Positions 2,237-47,222 of a DNA stretch of 64,000 bases are shown piece after piece. The DNA is from an uncultured Candidatus Saccharibacteria bacterium (GTDB taxonomy: Bacteria > Patescibacteriota > Saccharimonadia > Saccharimonadales > Saccharimonadaceae), in the NCBI GenBank assembly GCA_964566735.1, contig CAZMJB010000001.1, positions 21,516 through 85,515 on the forward strand, in the 5' to 3' direction. Numbering within the stretch: the stretch's first letter is position 1; each line of letters opens with the position of its first letter. Position numbers and translations under genes: made by a program. The notes under the pieces were generated by a model, which saw nothing but the letters and a program-made list of their open reading frames with translations, was not told where the DNA came from and did no database searches.

Positions 2237-2367
2237 TAGTTATTCCTCTTTCGTACCATGTTGGCACTTGTTTATGCTCAGGTGGAACTGGGTGCTAGCC
2301 ACGTAGTTGTATCCCTACGGCTCCGGCTCCCGCAACCTAAGCGGTTACTCTATACAATCAGTGATTT

Positions 2368-2396
2368 ATTATAGCACTAATTGGAAGATTTTGGAA
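2368..2396 (-). promoter_or_regulatory. Putative rplS promoter, TTCCAA-17-TATAAT with an extended TGn
   Basis: On the minus strand the -35 TTCCAA is at 2396-2391 and TGC+TATAAT at 2376-2368. This leaves a ~125-nt GC-rich leader before the rplS ATG at 2236. Confidence 0.5.
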
Positions 2397-2415
2397 GACC
2401 CGTTTAGTAGAGTGA

Positions 2416-3363
2416 CTAGAGTCCAGCAGGCCCAAATGATGTCGAAGCATGTTCTGCTGCATTCCACGTCCAACCCGAACTACTTCCGTCTCCATACCCC
2501 ACAGGTATCGAATCAGCGCTCAACATTGCACCATCAAATTCAACAAAATCGCCTGCGACCAAACCCGAACCCATGCCATAGACGGCAAATGTCAACCTGT
2601 CCATATTTGGCGTCACAGGAATCGACAGTGTTAAGCGCGTCCACGTATTCGGCACGAGTGCCACAAGCGACCCCGCCACCGTTCCAATATTCGTACTCGA
2701 CGAATTTCGTCTTTCGGCATGAATCCGGTACGACACTGCTTTGCTCGAACGCACCCAAATAGCAAGTTGGTATTCTGATGTCGAATTTAGCCCTGTTACT
2801 TGAGTATAAGGACCAAAATTACTTAAAGACCCATCAGCAGAAAGTGCGTAACGAAACGTTCGATCACCCACCTGGCCGCCGCTTGTCGGATTCGAAGAAG
2901 AGCCTGCAGCGCCGCCTATAAGTCCAGGCGTATTCCATGTCCAGCCCGACCAACCAGTTTCAAAACTCGGATTTATGACCATGTTGGTCGTACAAACAGC
3001 TCTGGTTGGACTCGCATTTTCTGAAGACGTAGCGAAAGAAATATCAGACTTTGAAGTGTTCGTTGCCGAAACGCAGTAGTCTGCATTGTCTGCCGATACA
3101 AGGTATCGATAGGTCGTGTCGGCGCTACTTACAAGACCGGTCTCGGTCTCAAATGCGGCAATACTTGGGTAAGCCCCGGCCGTCACACGTTTCGTCGCTA
3201 GTATTTTTCCCGCCTGGGATGCGGAAGACTGCGTCGCTGATTCGCGTGCACGATTTTGTATGCCATTATACGCCACGATGGTAATGGCGGCTAGAATTGC
3301 GATCACAACCACAACGATAAGGAGTTCGACAATCGTAAAGGCCTTAGATGTTGCACTGTTCAT
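2416..3363 (-). CDS. Type IV pilin-like protein with a C-terminal jelly-roll/CBM-like module
   Basis: The N-terminus KAFTIVELLIVVVVIAILAAITIVAYNG is a prepilin cleavage/methylation motif followed by a hydrophobic helix. The C-terminal half opens with NPSFETGWSGWTW, a CBM4/9-like signature. Confidence 0.8.
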   Translation of the reverse strand: MNSATSKAFTIVELLIVVVVIAILAAITIVAYNGIQNRARESATQSSASQAGKILATKRVTAGAYPSIAAFETETGLVSSADTTYRYLVSADNADYCVSATNTSKSDISFATSSENASPTRAVCTTNMVINPSFETGWSGWTWNTPGLIGGAAGSSSNPTSGGQVGDRTFRYALSADGSLSNFGPYTQVTGLNSTSEYQLAIWVRSSKAVSYRIHAERRNSSSTNIGTVAGSLVALVPNTWTRLTLSIPVTPNMDRLTFAVYGMGSGLVAGDFVEFDGAMLSADSIPVGYGDGSSSGWTWNAAEHASTSFGPAGL

Positions 3364-21143: not shown

Positions 21144-22055
21144 TCAGACGACTGCCTTCCCGGCGCATCCAAAGGCTTGGATCTTTTCTTCAACCACTGC
21201 TTGCACAGCGTCTTTTACACGGTCCATGAGCTTCACAACGGCAAATTCGTCTGGATGTGCTTTAAGCTCTTGCTCCATGACAGTGCGGAATGCGTAGCGC
21301 ATGTCGCTGTTGATGTTAATCTTGCTCACGCCAATTCGAGCCGCATCTTCGAAGAAGTGAAGCGGAGTTCCCGAGCCACCGTGGAGGCTAATTTGGCACG
21401 GAATTGCTTCACGAATTCGGCCGAGGAGTTCAAGGTCGAGTTCTTTTGGTACAGGGTACTTACCGTGGAGATTTCCGATTGCAGCAGCAAATGTATCAAT
21501 GCCCGTTGCTTCAACAAATGACTTTGCGCCTTCTGGGGTTGAGAAGGTTTTCTTGATTTCTTCGTAGTTAATTTCTTCGGTGTGCACGTTACTGCTTCCA
21601 CCAAAGTAGTGTGGTTCACTTTCAACGAGAGCGCCGGTGAACTTTGCATATTCAACCACTTCGCGGGTCTTTGCAATGATCTCTTCTTCTGAAGCATCGT
21701 GATTCGCCTGTGAAATGTCGATGTGAATAAATTCATACCCAGCATCGATCGCCTGCTTACATGCTTCGACGGTAGGGCTGTGGTCGAGGTTAAGGTACAT
21801 CTCGATGCCGTATTCTTTTTTGTAGTTGTCGACCATGTCACGGACGTTCTCGAGGCCCATAGCCTCCACTTCACCCTGACTCACTTCAACCAGCACCGGT
21901 GCGTTGGTTTTTTGCGCTGCACGTGCAATCGCAATAAGCGTTTCTTGGTTGTCGATATTAAACGCACCAACCGCAAAGCCCTGCTGACGACTTCGTTGCA
22001 TAAGATGACGAGCGCGCAGTGTATTGTCGCGAATTTCTGCTATTGTTAGCCCCAT
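21144..22055 (-). CDS. fba: Class II fructose/tagatose-bisphosphate aldolase
   Basis: 303 aa with FNIDNQETL, LNLDHS and ISLHGGSG. Confidence 0.85.
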   Translation of the reverse strand: MGLTIAEIRDNTLRARHLMQRSRQQGFAVGAFNIDNQETLIAIARAAQKTNAPVLVEVSQGEVEAMGLENVRDMVDNYKKEYGIEMYLNLDHSPTVEACKQAIDAGYEFIHIDISQANHDASEEEIIAKTREVVEYAKFTGALVESEPHYFGGSSNVHTEEINYEEIKKTFSTPEGAKSFVEATGIDTFAAAIGNLHGKYPVPKELDLELLGRIREAIPCQISLHGGSGTPLHFFEDAARIGVSKININSDMRYAFRTVMEQELKAHPDEFAVVKLMDRVKDAVQAVVEEKIQAFGCAGKAVV

Positions 22056-25139: not shown

Positions 25140-26153
25140 TTACTTGATTGTCTTCGCAATATCAGCAACAAGTTCAACCAAACGGTTTGAGTAGCCCCAT
25201 TCGTTGTCGTACCAAACCATAACCTTTGCAAGGTTACCGCCAACCACCTTCGTAAGAAGCAGGTCAACAACACCTGAGTGGCTGTTTCCGATGTAGTCGC
25301 GGCTTACAAGTGGCTCTTCACTGACGCCAAGAATACCTTGGTAGTAAGGCTCGGCAGCAGCCTTCTTGAATGCAGCGTTGATTTCTTCAACAGTAACATC
25401 ACGCTCAAGAAGCACGGTTACGTCGCTGATTGAAACTACTGGAGTTGGAACGCGGATACTGAGTCCGTCGAACTTACCTTCAAGTTGAGGCAAGGTCTTG
25501 GTAACAGCAATCGCCGCACCGGTCGTGGTAGGAACAATGTTTTCAGCAGCGTTACGACCTTCACGAAGGTCCTTTGCAGGAGCGTCCTGAATCGCCTGGC
25601 TTGCAGTGTAGCTGTGTACGGTCGTAAGAAGTGACTTCTCTACACCGAACTCAGCATCAAGAACTGCCATAACCGCACCAAGTGAGTTCGTGGTACAGCT
25701 TGCGTTACTAATAACGTGGCTAGCGCCCTCTACCTTGTCTTCGTTTGCACCAAGAACAATCGTGTCGACACCATCGCTCTTTGTTGGACCACTAATGACG
25801 ACGCGCTTAGCGCCGGCTGCAATGTGAAGCTCAGCAGATTCCTTGTCGGTGAAGCGACCGGTTGATTCGATCACGAGCTCAACACCAAGGGTTCCCCATG
25901 GAAGCGCCGCTGGGTCTTTTTCGGCGGTCACCTTAATGTGCTGACCGTTCACGATGATTCCTGCGTCGTCGTAAGACACGTCGTACTTGTAGGTACCGTA
26001 GTTGCTGTCGTGCTTCAAAAGGTACGCCAGTGTTTTTGTATCGGTAAGGTCGTTGACGGCGACTACTTCAAGATCACTACGATCAAACGCCAGCTTGAAT
26101 GCATTTCGCCCAATACGGCCAAATCCGTTAATACCAATTTTAGTTTTTGCCAT
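25140..26153 (-). CDS. gap: Glyceraldehyde-3-phosphate dehydrogenase
   Basis: 337 aa with INGFGRIGR and the active site SNASCTTN. Confidence 0.95.
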   Translation of the reverse strand: MAKTKIGINGFGRIGRNAFKLAFDRSDLEVVAVNDLTDTKTLAYLLKHDSNYGTYKYDVSYDDAGIIVNGQHIKVTAEKDPAALPWGTLGVELVIESTGRFTDKESAELHIAAGAKRVVISGPTKSDGVDTIVLGANEDKVEGASHVISNASCTTNSLGAVMAVLDAEFGVEKSLLTTVHSYTASQAIQDAPAKDLREGRNAAENIVPTTTGAAIAVTKTLPQLEGKFDGLSIRVPTPVVSISDVTVLLERDVTVEEINAAFKKAAAEPYYQGILGVSEEPLVSRDYIGNSHSGVVDLLLTKVVGGNLAKVMVWYDNEWGYSNRLVELVADIAKTIK

Positions 26154-26191
26154 ATGCCCCCATTTCTTAGTAGTTATGCATGACTAATTTA

Positions 26192-26219
26192 AGTATAAGC
26201 ATTTTGAATATCAAGTCAA
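26192..26219 (-). promoter_or_regulatory. Putative gap promoter, TTGACT-16-TATACT
   Basis: On the minus strand TTGACT is at 26219-26214 and TATACT at 26197-26192. It lies directly downstream of the terminator of the upstream RNA locus. Confidence 0.55.
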
Positions 26220-26545
26220 AAAATTAATGGGGGTCGACGCTACAGTGAGCGCCGACCCCCCGTGTGACGAGCCGATTTCTCAGACGCCCATAGGCAATAC
26301 CTCCAGGGTTGGGTGGTGCCCTCGGAGCCGAAAAGTGTTCACAGTTCGACCCCGAGGGGGCATTGCGCGCGGTGTCGCGCCCGTTATCTCAGTCTGGTGC
26401 AGTCTGAAACCCTCGTTGTTGCGAGCGCCCTTAGGCGCTGCGGTCGTTCAAGGGGACCGCTCTCTACTCAGAGAACGAGCGCGATGTGAATCGTCAATCG
26501 TTCAACTCTATACTGCAGAGTTGCTGGTGACTTTATCCGCTTAAA
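26218..26545 (-). ncRNA. Unassigned ~320-nt GC-rich structured RNA candidate with its own promoter and terminator
   Basis: There is no credible ORF on either strand. The promoter is at 26550-26578. Local helices are at 26503-26523, 26461-26474, 26424-26439, 26365-26380 and 26301-26327. A 12-bp-stem terminator at 26229-26260 is followed on the minus strand by ATTAATTTTTT. Confidence 0.5.
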
Positions 26546-26549
26546 AGCT

Positions 26550-26578
26550 ACTCTACTCGCCCTCGAAAATCATGTCAA
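26550..26578 (-). promoter_or_regulatory. Putative promoter of the RNA locus, TTGACA-17-TAGAGT
   Basis: On the minus strand the -35 TTGACA is at 26578-26573, followed by an exactly 17-nt spacer and the -10 TAGAGT at 26555-26550. Confidence 0.55.
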
Positions 26579-26597
26579 CAAACTGTATACTAAACAC

Positions 26598-28142
26598 ATG
26601 AAAAAGGCGGATATTTTATCGTACGCACAGCCCTTTTATGACGAGGATCAGCTCCTTGAGCTTGGTCACGCCATTGATGTTGCCACAAAAGCCCACAAAG
26701 GCCAAAAACGTAAAAGCGGCGAACCCTACATTATTCACCCTCTTAATGTTGCCTCAATTCTGATTGAGTGGGGCATGGATGTCGACAGTGTCATCGCCGG
26801 CATTCTTCATGACACCGTCGAAGATACCAGTATATCTTTAGAGGAATTAGAATCGCAGTTCGGCAAAGACGTCGCCTTCTTAGTAGATGGCGTAACCAAA
26901 GTCTCGCAGGCACGTGCCGGCATGCAGGACCTTACCGAATATCTTCCACAAACCAAAGATAACCTCTCAAAGCTTCTTATTGCCATTGGGCAAGATGTAC
27001 GTGTGATTATTATTAAGCTCGCCGACCGTCTTCACAACCTCCAAACCCTCCAGCACATGCCTCGTGAGAAACAAATCAAAATCGCTCGTGAAAGCCTTGA
27101 GGTGTTTGGGCCAATGGCCGATCGTCTGGGTATGGGTCGGGTGCGCATGCAAATAGAAGAGCTCGCCTTCAGTTTTCTTGACCCTGAAGAATTCAAAAAG
27201 CTGCAAATCCTTATGAAAAAGCGCCTTGGCAAAAGTACGCGTAAGCTGGGTATTGTGCGCGAAGAAGTTGACCGCGCCCTGAAAGCACAAAACGTTCCAC
27301 ACGAAATTAACGGTCGCGTAAAAAGTATTTACAGCCTTCACAAAAAACTGCTTAAAGTCGAAAACAACATCGATGACATTTACGACCTGATGGCGCTTCG
27401 TATTATTGTTGAAACAAAAGAAGATTGTTACCGCGTACTTGGTATCCTACACGCACTTTACCAACCAATGATTGCCCGCATTAAAGACTACATTGCGGTA
27501 CCAAAACCAAACGGCTACCAAAGTCTTCACACCACCGTTCTCACGCCGGCGAAACAAATCGTTGAATTCCAAATTCGTACCTACGAGATGCACGAATTCG
27601 CTGAGCGTGGACTTGCAGCGAGCTTCCACTACCACGAGCAAAAGAGCTCAAAAGATTACATGCGTGGCGGCAAAAAAGGCGCAGTCCTGCCTTCTCATAT
27701 GCAGTGGATCACTCAGCTTCAAGAAATTGCCACCAAACTTCGTAGCGGTGAAGAAATCCCCGAGTCACAACTTTCAATCGACCTGTTTGGTGACCGCATT
27801 TTCGTCTACTCACCACGTGGCGATATCTATAACCTGCCAGAAGGTGCCTACCCACTCGACTTTGCCTACCTCGTACACAGTGACATCGGCAAACACAGCT
27901 ATGGCTTCCGTGTGAATGGTTCAATTCACCCCTTCGATAAGCCGCTTCAAAACGGTGATGTCGTCGAAGTTATTACACGAAAAACCTCGCTGCCAAAAGC
28001 GACCTGGCAAGACCTCGTCACGACCACCCATGCTCGTGCCAAGCTCCGCGCTCAACTCCGTAAGGTTGGAGCCATTGAAAGCATTAGTCACGCAGCCGGT
28101 ATTATTCGCGAAAAGACGCGTCTTAAAAAAGATGCCGCATAA
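26598..28142 (+). CDS. rel: RelA/SpoT-homolog (p)ppGpp synthetase/hydrolase
   Basis: 514 aa with an HD domain (HPLNVA, HDTVEDT), a RelA_SpoT synthetase domain and a TGS domain. Confidence 0.9.
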   Translation: MKKADILSYAQPFYDEDQLLELGHAIDVATKAHKGQKRKSGEPYIIHPLNVASILIEWGMDVDSVIAGILHDTVEDTSISLEELESQFGKDVAFLVDGVTKVSQARAGMQDLTEYLPQTKDNLSKLLIAIGQDVRVIIIKLADRLHNLQTLQHMPREKQIKIARESLEVFGPMADRLGMGRVRMQIEELAFSFLDPEEFKKLQILMKKRLGKSTRKLGIVREEVDRALKAQNVPHEINGRVKSIYSLHKKLLKVENNIDDIYDLMALRIIVETKEDCYRVLGILHALYQPMIARIKDYIAVPKPNGYQSLHTTVLTPAKQIVEFQIRTYEMHEFAERGLAASFHYHEQKSSKDYMRGGKKGAVLPSHMQWITQLQEIATKLRSGEEIPESQLSIDLFGDRIFVYSPRGDIYNLPEGAYPLDFAYLVHSDIGKHSYGFRVNGSIHPFDKPLQNGDVVEVITRKTSLPKATWQDLVTTTHARAKLRAQLRKVGAIESISHAAGIIREKTRLKKDAA

Positions 28143-29450: not shown

Positions 29451-30425
29451 GTGAAACTGATTTCTCCAACGCAATATGTGCGAGAAGCTGCAGACGCCGT
29501 CGCTAAGGCAAAGACGCGCGTCTATTTGATGTCGATGGTCATCGCAGACCACGAAGCAACGCACCCGCTTATTCTGGCGCTTGAAGAAGCTGCGCAGCGC
29601 GGTGTTGAAGTCGTAGTTGCAGCAGATATCTTTACCTACGGTGAAGTAAGTGGCGGCTTCCTTCCGCTTCGCTATTACAGCCACGGCGCCCGAAGCACAA
29701 ATCGTATGGTTAAAACCCTCAAAAAAGCTGGGGTAAAATTCCACTGGCTTGGCCGTGGTCGCATTACACTCTACCATGGACGAACCCACAGTAAATGGTG
29801 TGTGGTTGATGACACCCTCTTCACCTTCGGGGGTGTAAACCTCTACGAAGAAGGGATCCAAAATATCGACTACATGTTCCGCCTGACCGACGCAAAACTT
29901 GCCGATCGTATTGTCGAAGAACAAAAACGCGTTCAAAAAGCCGAAAGTCGATCGGGGAACTTCCCGAGTGTCGCGCATGAACATGGCGAAATGACCGTTC
30001 TCATTGACGGCGGTTTTATTGGTCAGTCGGTTATTTACCGCCGCGCCATCGAGCTTGCCGAAAAGGCGACGCACATTACTTTTGTTTCGCAGTACTGTCC
30101 AACGGGAAAGCTCTCGCGAATCCTGGCTAAAAAATCGACGACGCTTTACTATAATCGCCCCCTCCAAGCAGAAGGGCTAAACCGCATTGCCATCCGCATT
30201 GGGCAAATCGCTACTGGGCTCAAAACAAGCTACACCAAGGCCCGCTACCTCCACGCAAAGTGTATCATTTTCACGTTTGAAGATGGCTCAAAGGCAGCAA
30301 TTACCGGCTCACATAACTTTGCCTACGCTGGTGTCCTACTTGGCACTCGTGAAGTGGCTCTGCTAACCCGGGATTCTCAAATTATCGATCAGCTCGAAAC
30401 CTTCATTGAAAAAGAAGTGAAATAA
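29451..30425 (+). CDS. Phospholipase D-family protein with two HKD motifs
   Basis: HGRTHSKWCVVDD and YLHAKCIIF...GSHNF are present. No TM segment is evident. The start is a GTG and is uncertain. Confidence 0.7.
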   Translation: MKLISPTQYVREAADAVAKAKTRVYLMSMVIADHEATHPLILALEEAAQRGVEVVVAADIFTYGEVSGGFLPLRYYSHGARSTNRMVKTLKKAGVKFHWLGRGRITLYHGRTHSKWCVVDDTLFTFGGVNLYEEGIQNIDYMFRLTDAKLADRIVEEQKRVQKAESRSGNFPSVAHEHGEMTVLIDGGFIGQSVIYRRAIELAEKATHITFVSQYCPTGKLSRILAKKSTTLYYNRPLQAEGLNRIAIRIGQIATGLKTSYTKARYLHAKCIIFTFEDGSKAAITGSHNFAYAGVLLGTREVALLTRDSQIIDQLETFIEKEVK

Positions 30426-46931: not shown

Positions 46932-47097
46932 CCACCATCGCCGATACCGTCGGCAACGCCCCCAACGAAGAAAGTCTGCTGTTGAGCTGCAATACGCACT
47001 CCGGCTTGTCGCTCTTCAGGGGGCTTTCTTTATTGGGTCAAAAATTGCATTTATGATTTAAAGTATCCGCGCCCCGGGCTTTTCTATTCATAACGAT

Positions 47098-47135
47098 GTA
47101 TATAAACAAATAGACACCCTGAACGGGGTGTCTAT
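47098..47135 (-). terminator. Intrinsic terminator after the KH-domain gene
   Basis: The minus strand reads TAGACACCC, loop cgttca, GGGTGTCTA followed by TTTGTTTATAT. Confidence 0.6.
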
Positions 47136-47222
47136 TATACACATAAGCTCTCAACAAAATGTGGTTTTGTCGCTCGCATGAGCTGTTCTCGCAGTTCAAA
47201 GTGTGTTCTGAACTGCTTGTGA

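Follow-up and report, generated by a model that had tools for sequence, protein, structure and literature searches.

The 64,000-nt stretch of DNA analysed here (hereafter the window) comes from an uncultured Candidatus Saccharibacteria bacterium (GenBank assembly GCA_964566735.1, contig CAZMJB010000001.1, forward strand, positions 21,516 to 85,515). The 444-bp spacer at 26154-26597, between the divergent genes gap and rel, holds an element that we read, with moderate confidence, as a stand-alone gene for a structured non-coding RNA (ncRNA) of about 320 nt (26218-26542, minus strand) with its own promoter and terminal hairpin, the product of which would act in trans. As far as sequence comparison can establish, the family is undescribed and the element is a lineage-restricted, accessory gene for a structured small RNA (sRNA), present as a strain-variable cassette. 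Its hosts are some Microsaccharimonas-like Saccharibacteria, the source of the window among them, in the spacer between rel and the gap-rpiB-rpe-tkt operon. The predicted RNA was delimited by its fold (z = -6.9), by a match to a covariance model (CM), and by the geometry of promoter and terminator, from which the ends were placed. The initial annotation of this DNA had proposed either a divergent housekeeping RNA or a new large structured RNA; the second proposal is the one that held, the element belonging to no known family, being non-coding, and having conserved helices.

Covariation and constraint

The CM was trained on the 5' 225 nt of the copies in the window and in two homologous loci, L005 and L006 (loci of related genomes are numbered with the prefix L). 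It matched the window at 26318-26542 with 244 bits and, with filters off, at no other place in it. Copies not used in training were recovered, namely the L024 type with 40.5 bits (E = 2.5e-10) and L091 with 32.6 bits, and a search of 620 kb of loci gave nothing beyond the carrier copies. In a seven-sequence alignment fitted to the model (A7), 90.2% of the cells pair, against 36-46% in controls slid by 1-3 columns, and both sides change in 20 of the 56 pairs, against 3-5 in the slid controls; none of 500 shuffles reached these pairing and double-change values. Hairpin P4 (helix 7 of A7) is 97% paired, and double changes affect 7 of its 16 pairs. The covariation test on homologous loci that the initial annotation had suggested, done here as pair counts, therefore shows compensatory changes. 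Outside the model, the terminal hairpin shows others, as do two small hairpins in the 3' region of the L024 type. A 6-sequence alignment (A5) has 33 paired cells that are G.U, with compatible pairing of 89.9% on the minus strand vs 80.8% on the plus strand, and this asymmetry fixes the minus strand as the RNA strand.

Judged by the fourfold-degenerate sites of rel, divergence of the element is far below neutral. L024 and L091 differ at 63% of these sites and are 80% identical in the element, and for L024 and L088 the values are 38% and 93%. L006 and L083 differ at 55% of the sites, with 94-95% identity in the 5' domain and ~84% in the flanking coding DNA. For the window and L005, 59% of the sites differ and the element is 67-69% identical.

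Fold and architecture

The minimum free energy (MFE) of the minus strand is -147.8 kcal/mol, a value that none of 100 dinucleotide shuffles equalled, and z is -2.9 for the plus strand of the window. Minus- and plus-strand z values are -9.8 and -7.9 in L005, and -4.5 and -1.7 in L024. With mononucleotide shuffles, the element scores -6.4 and five other non-coding gaps of the window (280-470 nt) score between -1.7 and +0.95. GC content is 57.0% at 26218-26545 and 59.6% at 26229-26542, compared with 48.5% for the whole window, 49.9% for gap, and 47.8% for rel. These values agree with the initial annotation, which had described the gap/rel interval as more than an ordinary spacer and as holding some 320 nt of GC-rich, strongly structured sequence on the minus strand.

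The conserved 5' core (26369-26540, minus strand) was defined from the MFE helices, the consensus fold, and the pair counts. It is closed by P1 (GCGG at 26540-26537 with CCGC at 26372-26369), which encloses a junction of P2/P2a and P3. P2 (26531-26528 with 26496-26493, GUCR/UGAC) bears the P2a hairpin (26523-26503, ACUC/GAGU). The long P3 (26484-26466 with 26393-26375) has a constant base, UCGCG/CGCGA, and inner helices at 26460-26399 and 26442-26422; its interior differs between types, the L024 type having another inner domain. The core is followed by P4 (26319-26358), a GC-rich hairpin (14 pairs and a further 2 at the apex) that is conserved in all seven copies, and then by a 3' linker (26261-26318) that the alignments mark as variable. 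Linker length is ~9-13 nt in L005 and L083, ~60 nt in the window, ~95 nt in the L024 type, and ~130 nt in L006, and the linker sequences are unrelated between types. Four helices named by the initial annotation (CAACTCT/AGAGTTG, TCTCT/AGAGA, AGCGCC/GGCGCT, and GCGCG/CGCGC) are present; the fifth, CTCC.GGG/CCC.GGAG, was inexact, the true pairing being a 14-bp hairpin, CCCUCGGGGUCGAA/UUCGGCUCCGAGGG. An internal GCACCA was considered as a mimic of a tRNA end and was rejected, since the L024 type has no GCACCA.

Elsewhere in the window, a sixth non-coding gap (46932-47222), between convergent open reading frames (ORFs), gave z values of -5.6 (plus) and -4.0 (minus) with mononucleotide shuffles. 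It contains hairpins such as ATAGACACCCTGAACGGGGTGTCTAT, its best Rfam match is no better than E = 0.3, and convergent or bidirectional terminators are the simplest explanation for it.

Promoters and predicted RNA ends

A promoter scan over 1.2 kb, with consensus scoring out of 12, found seven promoter-like sites, vs 1.3 +/- 1.1 in shuffles. The minus-strand promoter proposed by the initial annotation, TTGACA-17-TAGAGT at 26578-26550, was recovered with a score of 10/12. Its -35 hexamer (TTGACA, 26573-26578) falls within the 17 nt that separate the two hexamers of the divergent rel promoter, and its -10 hexamer (TAGAGT) is at 26550-26555. The -35 hexamer is TTGACA in the window, L005, and L006, and TTGTAT, TTGAAT, or TTGTGG in L024-type copies. 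From TARAGT to the conserved AAGCGG the distance is a constant 7 nt in all copies, and conservation sets in at this predicted start site in every copy. The 5' end was accordingly placed at A26542, the onset of both AAGCGG and conservation.

The predicted RNA closes with a hairpin at 26229-26260 (minus strand), a putative intrinsic terminator or 3'-end hairpin with 13 pairs, 10 of them G-C, and a 6-nt loop; the initial annotation had located it correctly and had counted a 12-bp stem. AUUAAUUUUU follows the hairpin (26260-26229), and the sequence past the hairpin, AUUAAUUUUUU, continues into the gap -35. The 3' end would fall within the U-run at 26218-26223. Since AUUAA stands between the stem and this U-run, the terminator is not ideal. 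The hairpin segment GGGGUCGGCGC is conserved in all types, with compensatory changes in L091. A possible pairing of the terminator sequence CCCCCAUU with the gap ribosome-binding site AAUGGGGG was seen in the window and L005, was missing from the L006 type, and was set aside as coincidence.

The promoter of the gap operon, TTGACT-16-TATACT (26192-26219, minus strand; 10/12), is located just downstream of the hairpin, where the initial annotation had put it. It lies outside the RNA and marks its boundary. This promoter (spacer 16 or 17 nt) is conserved between hairpin and gap, and is kept also at loci without the element. For rel, the candidate promoter is TCGAAA-17-TATACT (26563-26591, plus strand; 9/12), whose conserved -10 GTATACTA recurs ahead of rel in every relative that was inspected. 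It is divergent from the RNA promoter and shares 16 bp with it, so mutual interference is possible. The promoter block with this overlap is retained in L010 and L089, both of which are without the RNA body.

Comparison with known RNA families and mobile elements

All 4227 models of Rfam 15 were run with cmscan, at gathering score and at E <= 10, against the window and five homologous loci. At gathering score, two tRNAs were the only matches in the window and nothing was found on the element. At E <= 10, the sole match on the element was Ms_AS-4 with 16.2 bits (gathering score 50; E = 5.2), which we attribute to chance, and the five homologous loci had nothing on the element. The search of all of Rfam that the initial annotation had advised thus gave no significant match to any family. 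ARAGORN likewise found two tRNAs and no transfer-messenger RNA (tmRNA) in the window, and the Rfam tmRNA models were unmatched at E <= 10. RNase P RNA of types A and B had no match at either threshold, and neither the small nor the large bacterial signal recognition particle (SRP) RNA was matched, in the window or the five loci. There was no Rfam match to 6S or Ms1 RNA, and both the predicted and the consensus fold are a multi-branch junction, not a rod. These searches uphold the initial annotation, which had recognized no tmRNA, RNase P, SRP, or 6S RNA. At E <= 10, raiA, ROOL, GOLLD, OLE, HEARO, and the other large ncRNAs of Rfam also gave no family match. The initial annotation had said that a match to a known family, or homologues without compensatory changes, would speak against its reading; these are the points open to computation, and neither was observed.

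Mobile elements were considered as well. A blastn search of phage and plasmid records with the element found nothing, two pattern scans of viral contigs gave zero matches, and inverted or direct repeats flanking the element and target duplications were searched for and not found. The element occurs once in 64 kb (filters off) and nowhere else in 82 loci, which does not fit a miniature inverted-repeat transposable element, an insertion sequence, or a repetitive extragenic palindrome. It has no cognate protein gene beside it and no direct repeats, unlike TnpB/IscB omega RNA and IS110 bridge RNA; retron msr-msd, type III antitoxins, and CRISPR or TIGR arrays were set aside by the same comparison of neighbours and direct repeats. 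A literature search on structured and small RNAs in Saccharibacteria, TM7, and Patescibacteria yielded nothing relevant, the only finds being the lysM-TM7 motif and TIGR arrays.

Distribution among relatives

The Rel protein of the window was used to retrieve 80 loci from species-representative genomes (70-89% identity), nearly all of which are labelled Saccharibacteria, Saccharimonadales, or Microsaccharimonas. Seventy have the same divergent gap/rel arrangement. The spacer is shorter than 300 nt, typically 92-180 nt, in 51 of the 70 and is too short for the element; three (L005, L006, and L024) contain the element according to blastn, nhmmer, and the CM; and in the remaining 16 the spacer is long and its content unrelated, for example small ORFs and, in L009, a pilin-like gene. 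The element is consequently absent from the gap/rel locus in 67 of 70 syntenic relatives, among them L010, whose flanks are almost identical to those of the window. A metagenome scan with a conserved pattern (-10 box, AAGCGG, TCRC), a pattern that divergent or differently promoted copies would escape, found two copies only, both identical to L006. Look-up of close Rel relatives added further copies and brought the total to seven distinct ones. L083-85 are of the L006 type minus a 108-nt 3' insert, and L088 and L092/93 are L024-type copies. L091 (GCA_028286445.1, JAQBRO010000002.1; 1117-1500) is of the L024 type without the whole P3 arm. It shows compensatory changes and still has P1, P2/P2a, P4, the terminator, and the 3' hairpins. 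Rel look-ups for proteins P0063, P0034, P0021, and P0024 led to empty sites.

Empty sites also occur in very close relatives of carriers. The rel gene of L089 differs from that of carrier L006 at 3 of 239 fourfold sites (1.3%), and L090 Rel is 99% identical. In both loci (1400-1576 each) the RNA body is absent, and only the promoter and a short degenerate hairpin are found: TTGACA-17-TAAAGG and the 3' arm of the hairpin are kept, and the 5' arm is different and degenerate. From their sequences, these alleles look like recombinational allele replacement and not clean deletion. Because strains almost identical to a carrier are without it, the RNA body is dispensable. The pattern among these loci indicates that the element is accessory and that recombination has added, removed, or exchanged it over a very short time, always in this slot. 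Patchy occurrence and absence in near-identical strains, as seen in 67 of the 70 relatives and in L089 and L090 next to L006, mean that the gap/rel locus does not encode a housekeeping RNA, and this part of the initial annotation was dropped.

The gap/rel spacer is variable across Saccharibacteria in general, ranging from 92 to 1663 nt with unrelated inserts (L001-L080, ~2250-3000). Other inserts include a 321-aa type IV pilin-like ORF (L009) and small related ORFs in L016/L031 and L021/L022, and the spacers of L012, L046, and L077 carry other GC-rich, hairpin-bearing segments with terminators. The long spacers of L012, L016, L031, L039, L046, and L077 were tried as divergent homologues and rejected, as they had no CM match and their folds and ORFs look unrelated. 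L005 (DATMTU010000164.1), L035 (DATJIC010000007.1), and L016/L020 carry gap and rel of the Saccharibacteria type, with rel 76-85% identical to that of the window; their contigs sit in metagenome-assembled genomes labelled Dongiaceae, Verrucomicrobiia, or Parcubacteria, which is likely mis-binning or mislabelling.

Genomic context

Neighbouring genes were assigned by Pfam scan. The gene gap (25140-26153, minus strand) encodes glyceraldehyde-3-phosphate dehydrogenase and heads a minus-strand run continued by rpiB, rpe, and a split transketolase gene (tkt). The gene rel (26598-28142, plus strand) encodes a short RelA/SpoT homologue with HD, RelA_SpoT, and TGS domains. A Cu-oxidase_4 family gene, ppa, and a PLD-like gene complete the neighbourhood, and this set of neighbours recurs in the homologous loci. 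The ORF at 29451-30425 (plus strand) combines PLD-like and NgoFVII-type restriction-endonuclease N-terminal domains and adjoins ppa in related loci too.

Proposed mechanism and points against it

Under the reading as a trans-acting RNA gene, transcription would start at A26542 from TTGACA-17-TAGAGT, and the RNA would fold into the P1-closed junction (P2/P2a, P3) and then the stable hairpin P4. Most transcripts would end at the 13-bp hairpin, just ahead of the gap -35. The product would be a stable folded RNA whose conserved junction and P4 would most likely bind a protein or some other partner in the cell. Partner binding is favoured over an antisense seed, since what is conserved is P4, the helices, and the nucleotides of the junction, and loops vary freely. 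Firing of the RNA promoter may also compete with initiation at the 16-bp-overlapping rel promoter.

Several points weigh against this reading. The comparison covers seven distinct sequences of three or four types from one genus, in an alignment fitted to the model, and with so few related sequences the covariation statistics are weak and are not independent of phylogeny. L024 (2457-2850) and L088 are 95-99% identical over a block that runs from the first part of gap through the spacer and takes in the 3' two-thirds of the RNA gene, and 81-92% identical in the coding DNA flanking this block. The mosaic suggests recent recombination across the slot, so part of the similarity may not be due to selection. 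The lack of P3 in L091 and the replacement of its interior in the L024 type imply that much of the core is non-essential. The L005, L006, and L024 types have a poor U-tract past the hairpin; some read-through into gap is thus possible and termination may be leaky. The initial annotation had called the RNA an independent transcription unit, and its own promoter, its hairpin, and the gap promoter downstream support that claim, while the weak U-tract in most homologues qualifies it. We infer the strand, ends, and abundance of the RNA from DNA.

Alternative explanations

The best of the alternatives, which we consider unlikely, is a cis-acting leader of gap-rpiB-rpe-tkt, in which a riboswitch-like or protein-bound junction sensor would let the hairpin set a read-through that is added to the output of the gap promoter, with possible interference at the rel promoter. 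The element has the strand and orientation of gap, its hairpin abuts the gap -35, and it has a P1-closed multi-helix junction with conserved nucleotides; the weak U-tract in most homologues makes read-through plausible, and the 16-bp overlap of the RNA and rel promoters is also in its favour. However, a near-consensus gap promoter intervenes between hairpin and gene at all loci, with the element or without it, where a leader should have none. A linker of ~9 to ~130 nt, unrelated between types, is hard to fit to an expression platform, a conserved anti-terminator pairing was looked for by inspection of the sequences and not found, and 67 of the 70 relatives regulate the gap operon without the element.

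It is improbable that the element is a non-functional or selfish insertion, that is, decaying foreign DNA or a palindrome-rich insert in a recombination hot spot, with hairpins and hexamers that serve no function. Such an origin would account for the patchy distribution, for the presence/absence difference between near-identical strains, for the unrelated inserts that occupy the same spacer in other lineages, for the loss or swapping of domains (L091, the L024 type, and the L006 insert), and for a GC content unlike that of the surrounding DNA. It is countered by the single copy in the window without terminal inverted or direct repeats, and by the absence of copies elsewhere in the 82 loci and of viral-contig, phage, or plasmid matches. 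The element is, moreover, far more conserved than fourfold sites, its substitutions are preferentially compensatory, G.U pairs give a strand bias, promoter spacing is fixed, and conservation runs from the start site onward.

Quite improbable, in our judgement, is a role of the P1-closed junction and P4 as a small-molecule or protein sensor that couples the gap-rpiB-rpe-tkt operon and rel. Here firing of the RNA promoter would compete with the rel promoter, and regulated read-through of the leaky hairpin would boost the gap operon.

Action at the level of DNA and not of RNA, as a palindromic operator or another binding site for a protein beside the gap and rel promoters, is very improbable. The terminal inverted repeat GGGGTCGGCGC/GCGCCGACCCC is indeed conserved in sequence across all types and stands just upstream of the gap -35, but it accounts for ~32 bp and not for 320, the helices covary and admit G.U pairs, a mark of RNA, and the same promoters persist in relatives that have no such repeat.

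A small protein-coding gene, either the 105-aa ORF that is open on the plus strand (26227-26544) or a 3' mini-ORF, is effectively refuted. GC content by codon position is flat in the 105-aa ORF (0.60/0.58/0.58, vs 0.60/0.41/0.49 in gap and 0.61/0.34/0.49 in rel), as the initial annotation had said in noting that this only long ORF has no third-position codon bias. No relative of it was found among 5.8 billion proteins. No ORF is conserved between copies on either strand, and frames are broken even in the closest pair. In the linker, a Shine-Dalgarno-like GGAGG (26304-26300, minus strand) is followed after 8 nt by AUG GGC GUC UGA (26291-26280). The mini-ORF after GGAGG (gap of 6-8 nt) reads MGV* in the window and has 12 codons in the L024 type. 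Its peptide is not conserved (LEGVEN vs LGESDF in the 3' regions of L024 and L091), whereas the underlying RNA hairpins covary, and the region is probably structural. ORFs called over homologues might be taken as support for a protein. Gene callers translate through the RNA gene, giving an 82-aa 'hypothetical protein' at L083 1272-1520 and Rel proteins whose N termini are falsely extended by as many as ~120 residues (P0121/P0204, 630 aa; P0030, 543 aa; P0202; P0205). The 82-aa protein and the extended Rel proteins are annotation artefacts in public databases.

Significance

Genomes of Saccharibacteria and other bacteria of the candidate phyla radiation (CPR) are about 0.9 Mb in size. To our knowledge, almost nothing has been learned of the regulatory RNAs of these bacteria. 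A constrained 320-nt non-coding gene is a cost in such a genome, which implies a use. Its position between a stringent-response gene and the main glycolysis/pentose-phosphate operon, with overlapping promoters, makes it a testable candidate for RNA-based regulation. The natural variants (no P3, a swapped P3 interior, linkers of 0-130 nt, and empty sites) are a ready deletion series, and annotation of the RNA gene would remove the 82-aa protein and the ~120-residue Rel-extension errors. Should the sensor role be true, it would amount to a new class of riboswitch-like or ribonucleoprotein regulator, an optional module in ultra-small episymbiotic bacteria. General importance is limited by the narrow distribution and the dispensability.

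Comparison with known systems

In common with raiA, ROOL, GOLLD, and OLE RNAs, the element is GC-rich relative to its genome, arranges its helices around a junction with conserved nucleotides, has its own promoter and terminator, and has no dedicated protein gene next to it, so that function cannot be deduced from context. It differs from them in having no CM match at E <= 10, in its shorter conserved core (~120-180 nt), and in its occurrence in only four lineages of one genus, at one locus, where it is dispensable between near-identical strains.

With 6S/SsrS RNA, actinobacterial Ms1, and CsrB-type RNAs it shares an independent sigma-70-type unit that ends in a stable hairpin, and a highly structured product; action in trans by protein binding is plausible for it too. 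Unlike 6S and Ms1, it is not a rod with a central bubble, and unlike CsrB it has no repeated GGA loops. It also has no CM match to this group and is not clade-universal, as a 6S RNA would be.

A riboswitch or leader with a three-way junction is resembled in the way that P1 encloses two arms with conserved junction nucleotides, and in having a terminator hairpin ahead of a metabolic operon that shares its strand. In contrast to such leaders, gap has its own promoter past the terminator, types differ in linker length and have unrelated linker sequences, inspection showed no conserved anti-terminator, and most relatives are without the element.

As in the 'morons' of phages and other accessory cassettes, a self-contained unit of promoter, cargo, and terminator sits between conserved genes with presence/absence polymorphism, and other lineages hold different cargo in the same slot. 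Here, however, the cargo would be an RNA and not a protein gene, and the searches linked it to no phage or mobile element. As a kind, the stand-alone structured sRNA of bacteria is already familiar; what is newly found is this narrowly distributed RNA family.

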